Source of the DNA: a virus
Direction: 5' to 3' (one strand)
DNA length: 31,992 nucleotides
UHGV virus genome: UHGV-0236108
Translations under genes and position numbers: made by a program
The notes under the pieces: model-generated
Databases searched by the model: none
Seen by the model: the letters and a program-made list of their open reading frames with translations, nothing else
What the model was told of the DNA's origin: nothing
Shown: piece by piece, positions 1 to 13,869 of the stretch
Position numbering within the stretch: position 1 is the stretch's first letter
Layout: each line of letters begins with the position of its first letter

Positions 1-84
1 CTGATGTCCGGCGGTGCTTTTGCCGTTACGCACCACCCCGTCAGTAGCTGAACAGGAGGGACAGCTGATAGAAACAGAAGCCAC
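1..84 (-). CDS. insA: IS1 InsA, N-terminal 28 codons (partial, runs off window)
   Basis: Minus-strand GTG at 84-82 followed by codons for [28 protein letters not shown], the known InsA N-terminus with its CxxC zinc-finger start. Confidence 0.8.
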
Positions 85-139
85 TGGAGCACCTCAAAAA
101 CACCATCATACACTAAATCAGTAAGTTGGCAGCATCACC
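1..139 (-). mobile_element. IS1 insertion sequence, terminal 139 bp (element continues left of window)
   Basis: Reverse complement of 1-139 reads GGTGATGCTGCCAACTTACTGATTTAGTGTATGATGG...GTGGCTTCTGTTTCTATCAGCTGTCCCTCC, which I recognise as the IS1 terminal inverted repeat plus insA start region; element terminus at 139. Confidence 0.85.
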
Positions 140-975
140 GCAAATGCCATTAATACTTCTAAAGTATATCTTCTATAAAATTTAACAAAACCAACATAGA
201 AAACATAGACGAAGAAAAAGCTAAGCATTATTGAAAGTAAACTATAAAGATAATCACTATGAGTACATAATCGATAAATAAAGGTTGGAACTGATACCCA
301 AAATGAAATTATAAAGATTAAACATATGTTTCTGCAAAAACCATATAATGCAACATAGTTTTGAATTTTTGTTTGATGTTGTTTTGAAAACTCATAAACA
401 TAATGATATGCCAATCTGAAGAGATCATCATCAAGTCCGTTTTTATCTTGTAATAATTGGCGATTTGTTATGAACTTTTTCTCATAACCTTCTTTGATCA
501 TTAACCATGTTGTATTAGCTAAATGAAATGGTAGAGATTGAGAATAACATAGTTTTTGTGTTATAAAATCCCATAGTATTATTGGACATAATACGCATTT
601 GATTATGCGATTCTTTATTTTTGTTTTTTTATCAGCGCTTCTCTCATCGCAGGATGGGCTACAAATGCTTTCTGAGGTATCTATCAATTTTTTAAATAGA
701 TATTTGGAAGGATATCCTAATTCTTTATTCATGTATTTTTCGATAAAAAATGCTGACGTGATAGAAATAAAATGTCCAGCTATATAAGATATAATAACTA
801 TTGAAGCGTAGTTCAAAATGCCAAAGATTTGACTTTGACCTCTGAGCAATTCACTTAAGTCAATAACAATATCTAGATCGAATGTCAAACCACAGAAATA
901 CATTAATAGGATAAAAAAACCACCTGGTATTAAATATCCAAGAAAGTCATAGAATGAGAATGGATTTTGATTCAT
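118..975 (-). CDS. AT-rich polytopic membrane protein, 3' end truncated by IS1 (last ~6 codons and stop supplied by the IS1 inverted repeat)
   Basis: ORF-track 118..999; ATG at 975 has a GGAG 7 nt upstream, the TTG at 999 does not. Hydrophobic segments at both ends (FFILLMYFCGL, IVIISYIAGHFISITSAFFI, CLIFIISFWVSV, LLSIMLSFFFVYVFYVGFV). Very low GC versus neighbours. Reading frame crosses the IS1 terminus at 139. Confidence 0.55.
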   Translation of the reverse strand: MNQNPFSFYDFLGYLIPGGFFILLMYFCGLTFDLDIVIDLSELLRGQSQIFGILNYASIVIISYIAGHFISITSAFFIEKYMNKELGYPSKYLFKKLIDTSESICSPSCDERSADKKTKIKNRIIKCVLCPIILWDFITQKLCYSQSLPFHLANTTWLMIKEGYEKKFITNRQLLQDKNGLDDDLFRLAYHYVYEFSKQHQTKIQNYVALYGFCRNICLIFIISFWVSVPTFIYRLCTHSDYLYSLLSIMLSFFFVYVFYVGFVKFYRRYTLEVLMAFAVMLPTY

Positions 976-7044: not shown

Positions 7045-7536
7045 ATGAGTCTTTTGAATGACGTTCAGAAATTCATTGAAGCCCATCCGGGCTGTACTTC
7101 CGGAGACATTGCGGATGCTTTTGCAGGTTACTCACGGCAGCGCGTTCTGCAGTCAGCAAGCAAGTTACGTCAGAGTGGGCGTGTGGCTCACCGTTGTGAA
7201 GGAGATACACGCAGACATTTCTCGCGCCTGACTGAGAGAGCGCAGGAGCCGGAACCACAACCAGTTCGTGAAACCAGACCTGTGCGCAAGTTCTATGTCG
7301 GCACTAACGACCCCCGGGTGATTTTGTGCCTGACCCGCCAGGCTGAAGAACTGGAGTCGAGGGGCTTATACCGTCGTGCTGCAACGGTGTGGATGGCGGC
7401 ATTCCGTGAAAGCCACTCCCAGCCAGAACGAAACAATTTTCTGGCGCGTCGTGAGCGGTGCTTACGGAAAAGCAGCAAGCGGGCTGCATCAGGTGAAGAG
7501 TGGTATCTGTCAGGGAATTACGTGGGGGCTGAATGA
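7045..7536 (+). CDS. PerC-like regulatory protein (CPS-53 YfdN-like)
   Basis: C-terminal LESRGLYRRAATVWMAAF...RRERCL resembles the PerC-family signature; GGGGG Shine-Dalgarno before ATG 7045 (ORF-track GTG 7039). Confidence 0.5.
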   Translation: MSLLNDVQKFIEAHPGCTSGDIADAFAGYSRQRVLQSASKLRQSGRVAHRCEGDTRRHFSRLTERAQEPEPQPVRETRPVRKFYVGTNDPRVILCLTRQAEELESRGLYRRAATVWMAAFRESHSQPERNNFLARRERCLRKSSKRAASGEEWYLSGNYVGAE

Positions 7537-8186
7537 GTAATAAATATTGCCAGGCGCTGGTGGAACTGCGGAACAAACCAGCCCATGAACTGAAGGAAGT
7601 GGGCGATCAGTGGCGCACGCCGGACAACATTTTCTGGGGAATTAACACCCTGTTTGGTCCGTTTGTTCTGGATCTGTTCACTGACGGTGATAACGCCAAA
7701 TGTGCCGCGTATTACACGGCGGAAGACAACGCGCTGGCGCATGACTGGTCAGAACGCCTTGCGGAGCTTAAAGGTGCTGCCTTTGGTAATCCCCCATACA
7801 GCCGCGCCAGTCAGCATGAGGGGCAATACATCACCGGCATGCGTTACATCATGAAACATGCCAGTGCCATGCGTGATAAGGGCTGGCGCTATGTTTTCCT
7901 GATCAAAGCTGCCACCAGCGAAGTGTGGTGGCCGGAAGATGCGGACCATATTGCTTTTATTCGCGGGCGTATTGGTTTTGAACTGCCTGCCTGGTTTATC
8001 CCGAAGGACGAGAAGCAGGTGCCGACAGGAGCGTTCTTCGCTGGTGCTATTGCTGTTTTCGATAAGACCTGGAAGGGATCGGCAATCAGCTACATCGGGC
8101 GCGATGAACTTGAGGCATGTGGTGAGGCCTTTCTGGCGCAGGTTCGCCAGCAGGCAGAAAAACTGGTCAGGGAGATGGCGGCATGA
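7533..8186 (+). CDS. phage orphan DNA N6-adenine methyltransferase (Dam-type)
   Basis: Catalytic motif IV NPPY (FGNPPYS); ATGA start/stop overlap with upstream gene; no adjacent restriction endonuclease gene. Confidence 0.75.
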   Translation: MSNKYCQALVELRNKPAHELKEVGDQWRTPDNIFWGINTLFGPFVLDLFTDGDNAKCAAYYTAEDNALAHDWSERLAELKGAAFGNPPYSRASQHEGQYITGMRYIMKHASAMRDKGWRYVFLIKAATSEVWWPEDADHIAFIRGRIGFELPAWFIPKDEKQVPTGAFFAGAIAVFDKTWKGSAISYIGRDELEACGEAFLAQVRQQAEKLVREMAA

Positions 8187-9713: not shown

Positions 9714-10709
9714 GTGACCGTGAGAGCACTACTGACCCCTGAAATTGCCCCGCGTATGGGGATCGTATTGTTCAGACCAGGTTCAGAGCTGATGCCCTTG
9801 TTTATGCAGGGGCGTGTCCTGCTGGAGCCTGAGCCGGAACGTTATTCATCTTTCGCCAGTGGTGCCGTTCCGGCAGCATCACAACCGCTGGCGGATGATC
9901 CTGCCGTTCGGGCCGTGTTCCGCAATGAGGCAGTGATCCGTCGTGCTGGTGGAGTGGAATGTCTTGAAAGCTGGTTACTTCGTGAAAAAGGCTGCCAGTG
10001 GCCTCATTCCGACTGGCACAGCGAGAACATGACCACAATGCGACACGCGCCGGGCGCAATCCGTCTGTGCTGGCACTGCGATAACCAGCTGCGCGATCAG
10101 TTCACGGAACGGCTGGAATCAATGGCAACGGATAACTGTGCCCGCTGGATGTTGTCTGTTGTGCGTCGGGATCTCGGTTTTGATGATAGTCACGTTGTGA
10201 CAATGCCGGAACTATGCTGGTGGCTGGTTCGTAATGACCTGGCGGATGCCTTACCGGAAAGTGCAGCCCGTAAGGCACTGAGATTACCGAAGCCTGTTGT
10301 GCCGTCTGCCACCCGGGAAAGTGACCTTGTTCCTTCGGTTCCTGCCACCAGCATCATCCAGGATAAAGCGAAAAAGGTGCTGGCGCTGAAAGTGGATCCG
10401 GAGTCGCCGGAGTCTTTTATGTTACGCCCCAAACGTCGCCGCTGGGTTAACGAAAAGTACACGCGCTGGGTTAAGACGCAGCCGTGCGCATGTTGTGGAA
10501 AGTCTGCTGATGATCCTCACCACCTGATAGGTCACGGTCAGGGAGGAATGGGGACAAAAACGCATGACCTCTTTGTGTTGCCTTTGTGCAGAAAGCATCA
10601 CGACGAGCTGCATGCAGATACCGTGGCATTTGAAGAGAAGTATGGCTCCCAACTGGAGCTGATATTTCGTTTTATCGATCGTGCGCTGGCAACTGGCGTG
10701 CTGGCCTGA
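9714..10709 (+). CDS. DUF968-type prophage protein with C-terminal Cys/His (HNH-like) motif
   Basis: C-terminal PCACCGKSADDPHHLIGHGQGG...LPLCRKHHDELH; precise start uncertain (GTG 9714 or 9720). Confidence 0.65.
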   Translation: MTVRALLTPEIAPRMGIVLFRPGSELMPLFMQGRVLLEPEPERYSSFASGAVPAASQPLADDPAVRAVFRNEAVIRRAGGVECLESWLLREKGCQWPHSDWHSENMTTMRHAPGAIRLCWHCDNQLRDQFTERLESMATDNCARWMLSVVRRDLGFDDSHVVTMPELCWWLVRNDLADALPESAARKALRLPKPVVPSATRESDLVPSVPATSIIQDKAKKVLALKVDPESPESFMLRPKRRRWVNEKYTRWVKTQPCACCGKSADDPHHLIGHGQGGMGTKTHDLFVLPLCRKHHDELHADTVAFEEKYGSQLELIFRFIDRALATGVLA

Positions 10710-10726
10710 TTTTGTGGAGAAAGTTG

Positions 10727-11089
10727 ATGCGTGATATTCAGATGGTTCTGGATCGTTGGGGAGCATGGGCGGCGAGTGATAGTTCTGGAGTAGACTATTC
10801 TCCTATAGCTGCTGGGTTTAAAGGGCTTCTTCCCTATACAAGCAAAACACGTCAGGCTTGTTCAGATAGTGATGCATTAATTATTGAAGGTTGTCTTGCT
10901 CTTCTTAAGAAGAGAAAACCGTATGAGCACTCTCTGATTGTGGCTCATTACCTGTATGGCATCTCGAAAAGGAAGATAGCAAAAGCATACAAAAAAGATG
11001 AGAAATTGATACGTATAGAGATACAGTTGGCTGAAGGGTTTATAGATGGTTGTCTCTCGATGCTGGATATTCGTTTAGAAATGGAGTAA
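10727..11089 (+). CDS. late-gene antiterminator Q (QuuD-like)
   Basis: MRDIQMVLDRWGAWAA... matches the remembered QuuD N-terminus; GGAG 8 nt before ATG 10727 (ORF-track TTG 10712 probably not the start). Confidence 0.8.
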   Translation: MRDIQMVLDRWGAWAASDSSGVDYSPIAAGFKGLLPYTSKTRQACSDSDALIIEGCLALLKKRKPYEHSLIVAHYLYGISKRKIAKAYKKDEKLIRIEIQLAEGFIDGCLSMLDIRLEME

Positions 11090-11100
11090 TAAAATTAAGG

Positions 11101-11131
11101 CAGCAACATAGAGTTTAACTTTGTTGCTGCG
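11101..11131 (-). terminator. hairpin terminator for the reverse-strand HNH-motif gene
   Basis: GCAGCAACA...TGTTGCTGC 9-bp stem; on the minus strand followed by an A/T-rich run (CCTTAATTTTATTA). Confidence 0.4.
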
Positions 11132-11139
11132 TAACAGAT

Positions 11140-11886
11140 TTAATCTGGCATTATGGTAGATAATTGTGGGCTAGGTTTAACCCCGTAGGTTTCTGATATT
11201 CTTTTAACGTTGATACCTACGATTTTTCTGACAGCTCCCAACGAAAATTCTAACTCTTTAATCCCTGCGTCTTTAGAAGTGTTGTTCATATAATAACGGC
11301 ATGCTTCTCGAATTGACTTGCAAACGATAAATAGAGGTGATTCATCTGGGATTTGAGAAAGCAAAGAGGTCAAACATGTTCTTAACTCTTTGAGTGATTC
11401 GGCAACAAAACAGGGGTTTTCAAGATGATATTCTACGAACAAAGCCCCTTTATCATCCAATTCATTTATAATCTTTTTTGCCAGATTTCTTTCATCATGC
11501 TGTTGAATATATTTCAAAGCATCGAAGGTAATATTAATCGAACCTTCAAGACAGGAGCTTATAAGGCTTTCATGATCTTTTTTCCATTTTCTTAATACAG
11601 GTGCCGGATAGTCTAGCCCCTGATTCTTATCTATTAATACAGAACAAGTAGCACACAGCCATATGCCATTGTTAATTGACTTCCTTTCTGTTTCTGATTG
11701 TGACATGTCATAGCGTGGGCCATCAGGAGATGCTGCACATATGTGAGCAGCAACTCCTGTCTTGATTGATTTATTGCCATCAATTGATGGGCCAATGGTC
11801 AATCTAGGGCATGAAGGGTTTGAACAAATGAATGCTGCCCGCTCTGCTAATTTTTTTATAGTGTCTTTAGAAAAATTATGTCGCAT
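11140..11886 (-). CDS. AT-rich accessory protein with N-terminal HNH-type nuclease motif and an uncharacterised ~150-aa C-terminal domain
   Basis: C-x4-C ... H ... N ... C-x2-C spacing (FICSNPSCP ... VAAHICAASPDGPRY ... NNGIWLCATCS) typical of HNH beta-beta-alpha-metal folds; opposite strand to the flanking Q and lysis genes; low GC; own terminator. Confidence 0.6.
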   Translation of the reverse strand: MRHNFSKDTIKKLAERAAFICSNPSCPRLTIGPSIDGNKSIKTGVAAHICAASPDGPRYDMSQSETERKSINNGIWLCATCSVLIDKNQGLDYPAPVLRKWKKDHESLISSCLEGSINITFDALKYIQQHDERNLAKKIINELDDKGALFVEYHLENPCFVAESLKELRTCLTSLLSQIPDESPLFIVCKSIREACRYYMNNTSKDAGIKELEFSLGAVRKIVGINVKRISETYGVKPSPQLSTIMPD

Positions 11887-11979
11887 GTAGTGAACCCAAT
11901 ATATGAGAAAAATATTACTAACGCGGTCCGCATTTTATCATGTAATGTGTTAAGAGTGGTTACTTCGCCACACAGCTTA

Positions 11980-12009
11980 AACCCGCCGTCGAGCGGGTTT
12001 TGTCGTTTC
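11980..12009 (+). terminator. tR'-like rho-independent terminator downstream of the presumed Q-dependent late promoter
   Basis: AACCCGC-CGTCGA-GCGGGTT stem-loop followed by TTTGTCGTTT; located between the Q gene and the holin as in lambdoid late operons. Confidence 0.55.
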
Positions 12010-12152
12010 TGGGGCTGGGGATTCGTTGGTCCTTGCCTATTCCGCAGTTATCCATTGGTTCGGCTTCTTTGACGTTTCCGCTTCTGATTTGCGGTACATG
12101 ATGTTTCCTCAATTTGCACCTGCTGTATCAGCGAGGTGAGAGATAACTACAA

Positions 12153-12479
12153 ATGCCTCATAACCCAAATACATGGCTGGAGTTGGTCCAGAGCTGGTGG
12201 CGTGGAGACACACCGCTGGGTGCAGTGATTATGTCGATCGTTATGGCTGGTTTGCGCATCGCCTATTTTGGCGGTGGTGGTGGCTGGAAGCGAAAAACGC
12301 TCGAGATTTTGCTATGTGGCGCTCTGACGCTGACCTTTGCATCCGCTCTTGAGTATGTCGGATGGCCTAAATCGCTTTCTGTTGCCATTGGTGGTGGCGT
12401 GGGGCTGATCGGTGTCGATGCTATTCGTGGGGCTGCAATGCGAGTAATCGGTAACAAATTTGGTAGCTCGAAGGAGTAA
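12153..12479 (+). CDS. holin (lambda S-like class I, three predicted transmembrane helices)
   Basis: First gene after the late terminator, directly upstream of the endolysin; hydrophobic segments AVIMSIVMAGLRIAYF, LEILLCGALTLTFASAL, LSVAIGGGVGLIGV; charged C-terminus. Confidence 0.8.
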   Translation: MPHNPNTWLELVQSWWRGDTPLGAVIMSIVMAGLRIAYFGGGGGWKRKTLEILLCGALTLTFASALEYVGWPKSLSVAIGGGVGLIGVDAIRGAAMRVIGNKFGSSKE

Positions 12480-12482
12480 TTT

Positions 12483-12959
12483 ATGCAGGCACTAAATTCC
12501 CAGCGTAAAGCTTTCCTGGATATGGTGGCATGGTCAGAAGGAACGGATAACGGGCGACAACCGACACGTAACCACGGTTATGATGTTATTGTTGGTGGCG
12601 AACTGTTCACTGATTACTCCGATCACCCTCGCAAACTTGTCACGCTAAACCCCAAACTCAAATCAACAGCCGCCGGACGTTACCAGCTTCTTTCACGCTG
12701 GTGGGATGCTTACCGTAAACAGCTTGGCCTGAAAGATTTTTCTCCGAAAAGCCAAGACGCTGTGGCATTGCAGCAGATTAAAGAGCGTGGCGCTTTACCG
12801 ATGATTGATCGCGGTGATATCCGTCAGGCTATCGATCGTTGCAGCAATATCTGGGCGTCGTTACCTGGTGCAGGTTATGGTCAGTATGAACATAAAATCA
12901 GTGACCTGATTTCCCGGTTTAAAGAGGCTGGTGGGGTGGTAAATGAAGTTGAGCTATAA
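12483..12959 (+). CDS. R: endolysin, lambda R-type lytic transglycosylase
   Basis: Near-identity over the whole length to the remembered lambda R sequence (NQRKAFLDMxAWSEGTDNGRQ.TRNHGYDVIVGGELFTDYSDHPRKLVTLNPKLKST.AGRYQLLSRWWDAYRKQLGL...). Confidence 0.9.
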   Translation: MQALNSQRKAFLDMVAWSEGTDNGRQPTRNHGYDVIVGGELFTDYSDHPRKLVTLNPKLKSTAAGRYQLLSRWWDAYRKQLGLKDFSPKSQDAVALQQIKERGALPMIDRGDIRQAIDRCSNIWASLPGAGYGQYEHKISDLISRFKEAGGVVNEVEL

Positions 12960-13518: not shown

Positions 13519-13869
13519 ATGCCTCCTCGAACCCCAAAAGCCTGCCGCGTTCGCGGCTGCCCCCATACCACCACTGACCCGTCAGGCTATTGCGAAAGGC
13601 ACAAAAGCGAAGGCTGGAAGCAATACAAGCCAGGCCAGTCCCGTCATCAGCGCGGTTATGGTTCGAAGTGGGACAGTATCCGCGCGCGCGTCCTGAAGCG
13701 TGACAAAGGTTTATGTCAGTTATGTCTGCGTGCCGGTGTGGTGCGTGAAGCTAAAACCGTTGACCACATCATCCCTAAAGCGCATGGCGGCACTGATGCC
13801 GACTGTAATCTGCAGAGTCTGTGCTGGCCGTGTCATAAGGCGAAGACGGCCCGTGAACGACTTAAGTGA
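13519..13869 (+). CDS. HNH endonuclease associated with the packaging module
   Basis: CxxC ... DHIIPKAHGGTDADCNLQSLCWPCH ... canonical HNH motif; sits immediately upstream of terminase small subunit. Confidence 0.85.
   Translation: MPPRTPKACRVRGCPHTTTDPSGYCERHKSEGWKQYKPGQSRHQRGYGSKWDSIRARVLKRDKGLCQLCLRAGVVREAKTVDHIIPKAHGGTDADCNLQSLCWPCHKAKTARERLK

Follow-up and report, generated by a model that had tools for sequence, protein, structure and literature searches.

An HNH-DUF6650 fusion gene at the Q-lysis junction of a lambdoid Escherichia coli prophage is a candidate single-gene anti-phage nuclease

What is the role of a single gene that is encoded against every late gene around it, in the junction between the Q antiterminator and the lysis cassette of a lambdoid prophage? 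This question is raised by the virus genome UHGV-0236108, a stretch of 31,992 nucleotides that was analysed here at its full length (the window). A sequence-only reading had proposed a reverse-strand open reading frame (ORF) of 248 amino acids (aa) at positions 11140-11886, with an HNH motif at its N-terminus, as a candidate moron for superinfection exclusion or anti-phage defence, and the ORF coincides exactly with a PGAP coding sequence (CDS). The parts of that reading that computation can address were all borne out. Our analysis indicates that the protein joins an HNH nuclease domain, related to those of the defence effectors Cap5 and SPARHA, to a DUF6650 domain. It is quite probable that the gene serves anti-phage defence of some kind, and we lean towards the fuller proposal, mechanism included, that it encodes a self-contained prophage-borne abortive-infection nuclease.

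The ORF is not a chance reading frame, because the protein has 335 homologues (E down to 1e-156) and the ratio of non-synonymous to synonymous substitution (dN/dS) was 0.09 in comparison to an 83%-identical variant in another prophage (locus L115). The values for the HNH domain (0.08) and the DUF6650 domain (0.10) indicate that both are under strong purifying selection. An AlphaFold2 (AF2) model of the 248-aa protein was obtained with a pLDDT of 87.4 and a pTM of 0.85.

The three peptides from which the HNH motif had been read (FICSNPSCP, AAHICAASPDGPRY and NNGIWLCATCS) are all present in the ORF, and the spacing C21-x4-C26 ... H48 ... N73 ... C78-x2-C81 proved to be a conserved feature, as these six residues, like D86, do not vary among 47 homologues that range down to 41% identity. 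Generic Pfam-A models barely detected the N-terminus (HNH_2, E 0.086) and an NCBIfam search of the 248-aa protein gave no meaningful match. The PADLOC defence models matched the N-terminus, led by PDC-M68A (E 7.5e-27, residues 1-130 only) and followed by the 'Effector Endonuclease' of the cyclic oligonucleotide-based anti-phage signalling system (CBASS; E 4.8e-21), SAVED_HNH (4e-19, residues 4-114 only) and an HNH-bearing Shedu SduA model (E 4.7e-8). Among solved structures, a sequence search of the PDB returned the Cap5 entries 8ysq, 7rwk, 7rwm and 8fm1 in addition to 9om4, the HNH effector of SPARHA.

Alignment to Cap5 pairs H48 with the catalytic His of the 'AHI' strand, N73 with the structural Asn and D86 with the Asp that binds Mg in the 'LID' helix, and C21, C26, C78 and C81 with the C/C/C/H zinc site, which is a predicted CCCC zinc site here. 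The 'bridge' Glu at position H-3 is found in 16 of the 47 family members and is a Val in this protein. In the AF2 model an N-terminal helix (7-16), the equivalent of the dimerisation helix, precedes a beta-beta-alpha core made of two strands (44-48 and 74-78) and a helix (79-87), after which comes a long helix (95-114). These features place the N-terminal domain in the Cap5/SPARHA clade as a predicted, intact HNH DNase. The HNH domains of Cap5 and SPARHA are sequence-nonspecific DNases that become active only once an attached sensor assembles them into a dimer of dimers (PMC12141522; PMC12738770).

Cap5-type HNH domains with 50-52% identity to residues 2-109 were also observed with other C-termini in 'lysogenic conversion' genes of P2-like phages, for example at 934-1257 in Yersinia phage vB_YenM_31.17 and at 2584-2913 in P2-EC46. 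The HNH module is therefore shuffled among prophage cargo genes.

The remainder of the protein, which could not be assigned from the letters alone and had been taken as a domain of roughly 150 residues, measures about 135 aa and was identified as DUF6650. PF20355 is a precomputed match on all 335 homologues, including one of 95% identity, and PGAP names the protein a 'DUF6650 family protein'. Our own Pfam-A scan gave no C-terminal match, nor did it return PF20355 for clear members of the family, and the model (PF20355.5 in the tables) appears to be absent from that copy. An exhaustive HMMER search with a C-terminal profile recovered 1,228 representative clusters at 50% identity, mostly stand-alone proteins of 150-180 aa annotated with PF20355, and alignment of the C-terminal profile to the stand-alone DUF6650 profile with hhalign gave a probability of 100% (E 1e-39). 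Within the fusions E156, S164, R169, R220 and K221 are invariant and C196, R197, N201, G224 and P247 nearly so; the stand-alone proteins share E156, S164, R169, C196, R197, R220, G224 and P247 at levels of 84-99%. The C-terminal domain is thus, as judged from these profiles, a bona fide DUF6650 domain. In the model residues ~116-248 form a five-helix bundle (121-129, 133-144, 158-176, 184-202 and 209-234), and comparison of this fold with solved structures returned generic helical bundles and no specific relative, with no significant match in a BFVD fold search. Two short matches to the C-terminal profile (P0131 and P0127) were set aside as they look like truncated or frameshifted fusions, and a word-indexed search gave just fusions and fragments.

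DUF6650 has one characterised setting. Type VI Thoeris, described in a preprint of December 2025, consists of a TIR protein (ThsB) and a DUF6650 protein (ThsG); upon infection the TIR makes 2'cADPR, an isomer of cyclic ADP-ribose (cADPR), which arrests the growth of cells that carry the system (bioRxiv 10.64898/2025.12.03.692087). ThsG is predicted to form a hexameric tube with a positively charged lumen and inter-protomer pockets, some ThsG proteins have N-terminal transmembrane (TM) helices, the toxicity of those that lack them is described as unclear, and an HNH fusion is not mentioned (10.64898/2025.12.03.692087). The validated system of E. coli ACN001 (locus L102, 2270-3618) has a TM-DUF6650 ThsG gene overlapping the TIR gene and is carried in a P2-like prophage, between replication/DinI genes and a portal remnant, which is the classic defence-cargo hotspot of P2.

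Stand-alone DUF6650 genes were sampled at five loci, which are defence hotspots as well, and each showed a tightly coupled, unannotated, non-TIR partner. Three are flanked by hsdS and hsdR within type I restriction-modification (R-M) operons (L098, L099 and L100, from metagenomic sequences or metagenome-assembled genomes), with the DUF6650 gene at 3501-~4000 and an overlapping or abutting partner of 187-316 aa, one of which matches PADLOC PDC-M14A; the other two lie beside a short prokaryotic Argonaute (pAgo)-SIR2 gene and beside AbiJ, respectively. No cryptic TIR was found among these partners by Pfam, PADLOC or tblastn, and the pairs inside the type I R-M operons resemble two-gene systems that are as yet uncharacterised and separate from type VI Thoeris.

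Does the fusion act with a partner? Full-length fusions of ~245-260 aa with 32-56% identity were found in Gamma-, Beta- and Alphaproteobacteria, Bacteroidota, Cyanobacteria, Acidobacteriota, Clostridia and Chloroflexota. Around these genes integrases, transposases and resolvase are over-represented, and so are defence genes, including LmuA/LmuB (Lamassu), Avs3a, SduA (Shedu), DrmC, AbiV, PDC candidates and methylases. No conserved partner gene emerged from BLASTP clusters of 197 neighbours or from Pfam and PADLOC searches of 96 flanking ORFs, and across 27 diverse loci no neighbour family occurred in more than two. A CD-NTase was found neither in the prophage annotation nor among the homologue neighbours. 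A TIR was likewise absent from the 96 flanking ORFs of the 27 diverse full-length loci, and none of 10 operon-like neighbours was one. In the prophage itself PGAP annotates no TIR gene, and tblastn with seven type VI ThsB proteins gave a best E of 2.9 on the window and of 0.2 on 1.3 Mb of loci that include it, with no ThsB relative recovered. The fusion travels as a single gene in defence islands and prophage moron slots. Membership of a Type II R-M system was considered and rejected, as linkage to a cognate methyltransferase was lacking: an N6_N4 methylase is adjacent in just 2 of the 27 loci, and the Dam-like methylase of this prophage (~7533-8186) is a common lambdoid gene that lies 3 kb off in the early operon.

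Weak HEPN-type matches (HEPN_AbiV, HEPN and DUF4145) recur beside fused and stand-alone DUF6650 genes (L014, 9333-9926; L022, 7401-7904; L026, 8790-9425; L097, 2631-3479), and this recurrence may be a defence-island coincidence or a loose association.

Composition and transcription signals at the locus bore out what had been read from the sequence. The GC content of the gene is 37.6% (GC3 30%) in comparison to 51.8% for the whole window, which ranks it 21st lowest of 625 sliding 747-bp windows (lowest 3-4%); the Q gene is likewise low (41%). The hairpin at 11101-11131, proposed as the gene's own terminator, folds at -15.2 kcal/mol (z = -4.29), none of 200 shuffled sequences folded as well, and a U-rich tract (CUUAAUUUUAUU) follows it on the minus strand. 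A consensus terminator scanner skipped this hairpin on account of its loop of more than 8 nt. The intergenic region between the start codon and the holin must carry a putative minus-strand promoter of the gene as well as the putative late promoter and leader of the phage on the plus strand. An Rfam scan of the whole window gave no match.

The Q/lysis junction had been put forward as a moron site, and comparison with related prophages agrees with this. In several other E. coli prophages, window positions 10702-12001, which cover Q, the gene and the leader as far as the plus-strand terminator, are shared at 99.8% and are followed by a different lysis module, and the similarity of phages SfIV and SfII to the window begins only at 11907/11941. 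In Shigella phage SfIV (L092, 962-2384) the antisense hypothetical genes gp48 (108 aa) and gp49 (356 aa) take up the corresponding position ahead of the shared holin leader. These mosaic boundaries, taken together with gp48/gp49, therefore define a cargo slot in which the HNH-DUF6650 gene is linked to Q and not to the lysis genes. Q proteins of the same family (71-100% identity) adjoin antisense variants of the gene of 56-100% identity (L002, L012 and L109-L117), including those of 83% in L115, 60% in L002 (a lambda-like prophage with different lysis and terminase genes) and 56% in L012/L117 (Buttiauxella). The Q junction location was seen in four diverged enterobacterial prophage lineages, with Q as the constant neighbour.

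The gene was found in 25 of 5,426 complete E. coli genomes, all copies being chromosomal and at least 99.9% identical. In one carrier, NZ_CP053787.1 (E. coli from wild boar), which matches window positions 11140-11807, an IS3-family transposase splits the gene.

An autonomous defence nuclease is favoured because the protein combines an intact Cap5-clade HNH domain with a genuine DUF6650 domain, has no conserved partner gene, occurs in defence and cargo contexts, is under constraint and has transcription signals of its own. The gene would be transcribed in the lysogen from its own promoter, antisense to the late operon, and the protein would be held inactive until DUF6650 detects an infection cue. 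This cue may be a small phosphate-rich nucleotide signal, as 2'cADPR is for ThsG, or a phage component. Assembly of DUF6650 into a ring or higher oligomer would then join HNH domains as a dimer of dimers capable of double-strand cutting, and nonspecific DNA degradation would kill the cell or destroy the invading genome before the superinfecting phage finishes its cycle. If the gene is indeed a defence gene, such sensor-driven oligomerisation is its probable mode of action by analogy to Cap5 and SPARHA. Given the convergent Q gene and the shared hairpin, it may be speculated that read-through from the early/Q transcript dampens the gene at the prophage's own induction.

Three known systems provide the closest comparisons. 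Cap5, the SAVED-HNH effector of CBASS (PDB 7RWK, 8FMF and 9DIF), has the same order of N-terminal HNH and C-terminal sensor and, as a nonspecific DNase, is switched on when its ligand induces tetramers (PMC12141522); similar behaviour is predicted for the present protein. It differs in being ~130 aa longer and in having a SAVED sensor in place of the helical DUF6650, and the protein falls outside CBASS, as it has no SAVED domain and no CD-NTase or other signal synthase nearby. The HNH-APAZ protein of SPARHA (PDB 9OM4) was the second-best solved-structure match by sequence (E 3e-8, residues 13-113); activation through filament or tetramer formation leads to collateral DNA cleavage (PMC12738770), but its regulator is APAZ with a separate nucleic-acid-guided pAgo, whereas a single polypeptide with DUF6650 is found here. 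ThsG shares the PF20355 assignment and carriage in E. coli prophages (in the P2-like hotspot), and its DUF6650 both receives the signal and oligomerises within an effector that kills the cell (10.64898/2025.12.03.692087). ThsG differs in that it is DUF6650 alone or TM plus DUF6650, without a nuclease, and adjoins a TIR gene (ThsB), whereas the present protein has an HNH domain and no TIR.

Both modules are already known defence parts, and the protein itself has been flagged by a machine-learning screen. DefensePredictor (Science 2026, PMC13092281) counted DUF6650 as one of five DUFs with a new link to defence and gave WP_001406331.1 the label 'Predicted novel defense gene', at a mean log-odds of 8.58 in comparison to a stringent cutoff of 4. 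The sequence-only reading had recognised no named system in the gene, and the published prediction for this exact protein was beyond its reach. The same source reports DS-27, a validated single-gene system with a SMEK_N N-terminus and a DUF6650 call by HHpred of 0.88 (PMC13092281). PDC-M68, to which the top PADLOC model belongs, is a multi-gene candidate, and positions 131-253 of the PDC-M68A model, its C-terminal half, find no match in the protein; an HNH-DUF6650 fusion is neither described nor tested in either source.

Several observations weigh against an autonomous defence nuclease. The metal site differs somewhat from that of PsCap5, in which the Mg ligand His91 corresponds to Ser/Ala82 here, and the fusion lacks the N-terminal 'TGxSxPxFGVSWxP' motif conserved in stand-alone DUF6650 proteins. 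Resemblance to the characterised receptor was marginal. A ThsG set was obtained via TIR partners from E. coli (ACN001 and S1) and from Listeria, Priestia and Lactiplantibacillus plasmids, and the E. coli plasmid p13TMH22-1 was discarded as a source, as it has a frameshifted TIR and no effector. The single ThsG of E. coli ACN001 gave no significant match to DUF6650 profiles in hhalign. A profile of five TM-type ThsG sequences matched stand-alone DUF6650 marginally (E 1.6e-4, probability 51%) and the domain of the fusion at E 3e-3 and a probability of 11%, over the first half only (~80 columns, in register). Ligand specificity is therefore not transferable from ThsG, though the Pfam family is common to both. 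Expression in the lysogen is assumed, and a sigma-70 consensus scan of 10900-12300 on both strands gave no match. WP_001406331.1 appears solely in the prediction table of DefensePredictor, outside the units that were cloned and tested (PMC13092281), and our literature search found no published description or test of the HNH-DUF6650 architecture or of TIR-less operation. Lastly, DS-27 ('SMEK') was dropped as a validated precedent, as hhalign of our profiles to its sequence and C-terminus found nothing.

DUF6650 could be a general, portable receiver and assembly module, like SAVED or CARF, that is coupled to many outputs. The TIR-less nuclease found here may then 'eavesdrop' on a cADPR-type signal from TIR systems of the host or of other prophages, or sense a phage-generated metabolite. 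The outputs seen with DUF6650 are the HNH domain here, the TM helices in ThsG and the unannotated partners in type I R-M operons. We regard this proposal as possible but doubtful.

An unlikely explanation is that the protein is an orphan Thoeris-type effector, a ThsG-like receptor that would need a TIR-made cADPR isomer supplied in trans by the host or by another mobile element. The DUF6650 family does include the 2'cADPR-activated ThsG, the conserved basic residues R169, R197, R220 and K221 would fit a phosphate-rich ligand, and type VI Thoeris occurs naturally in E. coli and in its prophages, with known type VI TIRs in 60 of 5,426 complete genomes. However, at least 23 of the 25 carriers of the fusion have neither of the two known E. 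coli type VI TIRs that were searched, and the overlap of one carrier (NZ_CM141449.1), at most two, is at chance level (0.28 expected). The TIR-free surroundings of the 27 diverse loci and the marginal homology to validated ThsG also argue against an orphan effector, and a dN/dS of 0.09 would be unexpected for one that mostly occurs apart from its signal generator. We consider it unlikely that the trigger is 2'cADPR supplied in trans by a TIR.

The main alternative to the abortive-infection nuclease, no less unlikely in our assessment than the orphan effector, is a restriction-like mode of action, in which the protein would be a single-polypeptide HNH endonuclease, modification-dependent (Type IV) or otherwise specific for a DNA feature, that cuts incoming phage DNA directly without killing the cell and uses DUF6650 as a DNA-recognition or oligomerisation module. 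The same two-domain logic is known from McrA, ScoMcrA and SRA-HNH (summarised in PMC12738770), and ScoMcrA was a weak structural match. The nearest known-defence homologue given by DefensePredictor is a 'Type II REase HNH endonuclease' that covers 35% of the protein (PMC13092281), 25 of the 27 loci have no methylase partner, as a Type IV enzyme would allow, and the positive lumen of the ThsG hexamer could in principle bind nucleic acid (10.64898/2025.12.03.692087). Against this stands the one characterised setting of DUF6650, in which it responds to a small molecule (10.64898/2025.12.03.692087).

HNH genes in phages are often homing endonucleases. A selfish or phage-serving nuclease, be it a free-standing homing endonuclease, a phage weapon that degrades competitor or host DNA in lytic growth, or an anti-defence factor in which DUF6650 acts as a cADPR 'sponge', would fit this precedent and the sharp, mosaic cassette boundaries, and a phage-borne signal-binding domain could in principle act like Tad1/Tad2; it is nevertheless very improbable, as most family members reside in bacterial chromosomes and defence islands, no full-length homologue was found in 50,697 sequenced phage genomes and ~17 IMG/VR contigs with full-length relatives are mostly prophage-derived, the orientation against the late operon and the own terminator place the gene outside lytic transcription, and the nuclease residues that a sponge would not need are invariant. 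A housekeeping or homing function, which the sequence-only reading had itself named as the finding that would speak against its proposal, did not emerge: there is no intron or intein, no association with a target gene was seen, NUMOD, AP2 and IENR modules are lacking, the site is intergenic and antisense, and homologues occupy unrelated chromosomal contexts. Homing-endonuclease, packaging and anti-defence roles are all poorly supported.

The packaging role belongs to a second HNH gene of the window (13519-13869, plus strand), a canonical PF01844 protein (E 1e-14) directly upstream of the P27-family small terminase, which is of the usual packaging-associated type and unrelated to the HNH-DUF6650 gene. 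A further protein with a weak HNH signal (HNHc_6; phrog_96 'HNH endonuclease') is the DUF968 protein directly upstream of Q (9714-10709, plus strand), whose gene accompanies both Q and the HNH-DUF6650 gene in prophages of E. coli and Buttiauxella. The features of the locus are collected in Table 1.

Table 1. Features of the Q-lysis junction in UHGV-0236108, in window coordinates.
Feature	Position	Strand	Basis and remarks
HNH-DUF6650 gene, 248 aa	11140-11886	-	ATG ORF; PGAP CDS; identical to RefSeq WP_001406331.1 ('DUF6650 family protein' / 'hypothetical protein')
Predicted Cap5/SPARHA-type HNH (His-Me finger) domain, codons 1-115	11542-11886	-	
DUF6650 (PF20355) all-helical domain, codons ~116-248 and stop	11140-11541	-	Precomputed PF20355, PGAP name, profile searches
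Terminator hairpin in the convergent Q/moron gap	11101-11131	-	RNA fold; 9 nt past the HNH-DUF6650 stop codon, 12 nt past the Q stop codon
Intergenic region, HNH-DUF6650 start codon to holin	11887-12152	.	Terminator scan
Intrinsic terminator, tR'-like, ahead of the holin	11979-12010	+	Terminator scan
Q antiterminator, convergent with the HNH-DUF6650 gene	10712-11089	+	PF06530, E 6.6e-52
Lambda-type holin	12153-12479	+	PF05106, E 6e-25; HNH-DUF6650 gene divergent from the lysis cassette
Lysozyme	12483-12959	+	

The window as a whole is a lambdoid E. coli prophage with SfII/SfIV/SfV-like lysis and Mu-like tail modules, of which 25.7 kb is 99.99% identical to a prophage of E. coli strain GCUET01 (L001). 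Its left end differs from that prophage: window positions 1-140 match L001 2072-2211 beside an IS1 copy and colinearity resumes 3.2 kb further on, at L001 5437, so that the window is without a segment bearing integrase/xis genes, a STAS-like gene and two hypothetical genes. This arrangement suggests an IS1-associated deletion that grounded the prophage. The IS421 copy in the tail region of the GCUET01 prophage is absent from the window, and it was dropped as a sign of a decayed prophage since the two are not strictly colinear. Also at the left end, a 293-aa ORF on the minus strand (118-999) occupies the most AT-rich stretch (27.8% GC). It has no Pfam match and a weak PADLOC match (E 1.4e-5) to Csx27, a membrane protein associated with Cas13b, and could be a further moron, perhaps one for a membrane protein or for superinfection exclusion.

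In summary, a defence role for the HNH-DUF6650 fusion, if confirmed, would make it a compact, 248-aa, one-gene anti-phage system built from modules so far studied only in multi-gene signalling systems. Most DUF6650 genes (1,228 clusters at 50% identity in comparison to 255 reported type VI operons) fall outside recognisable Thoeris operons, and the fusion poses the question of what switches on a DUF6650 receiver without a TIR. As a natural nuclease fusion it gives DUF6650 an assayable output, DNA cleavage, and is a possible reporter for the ligand or trigger and for assembly of this domain. For the prophages themselves, the Q-pR' junction of SfII/SfV-like and lambda-like enterobacterial prophages would be a recurrent slot for antisense defence cargo.

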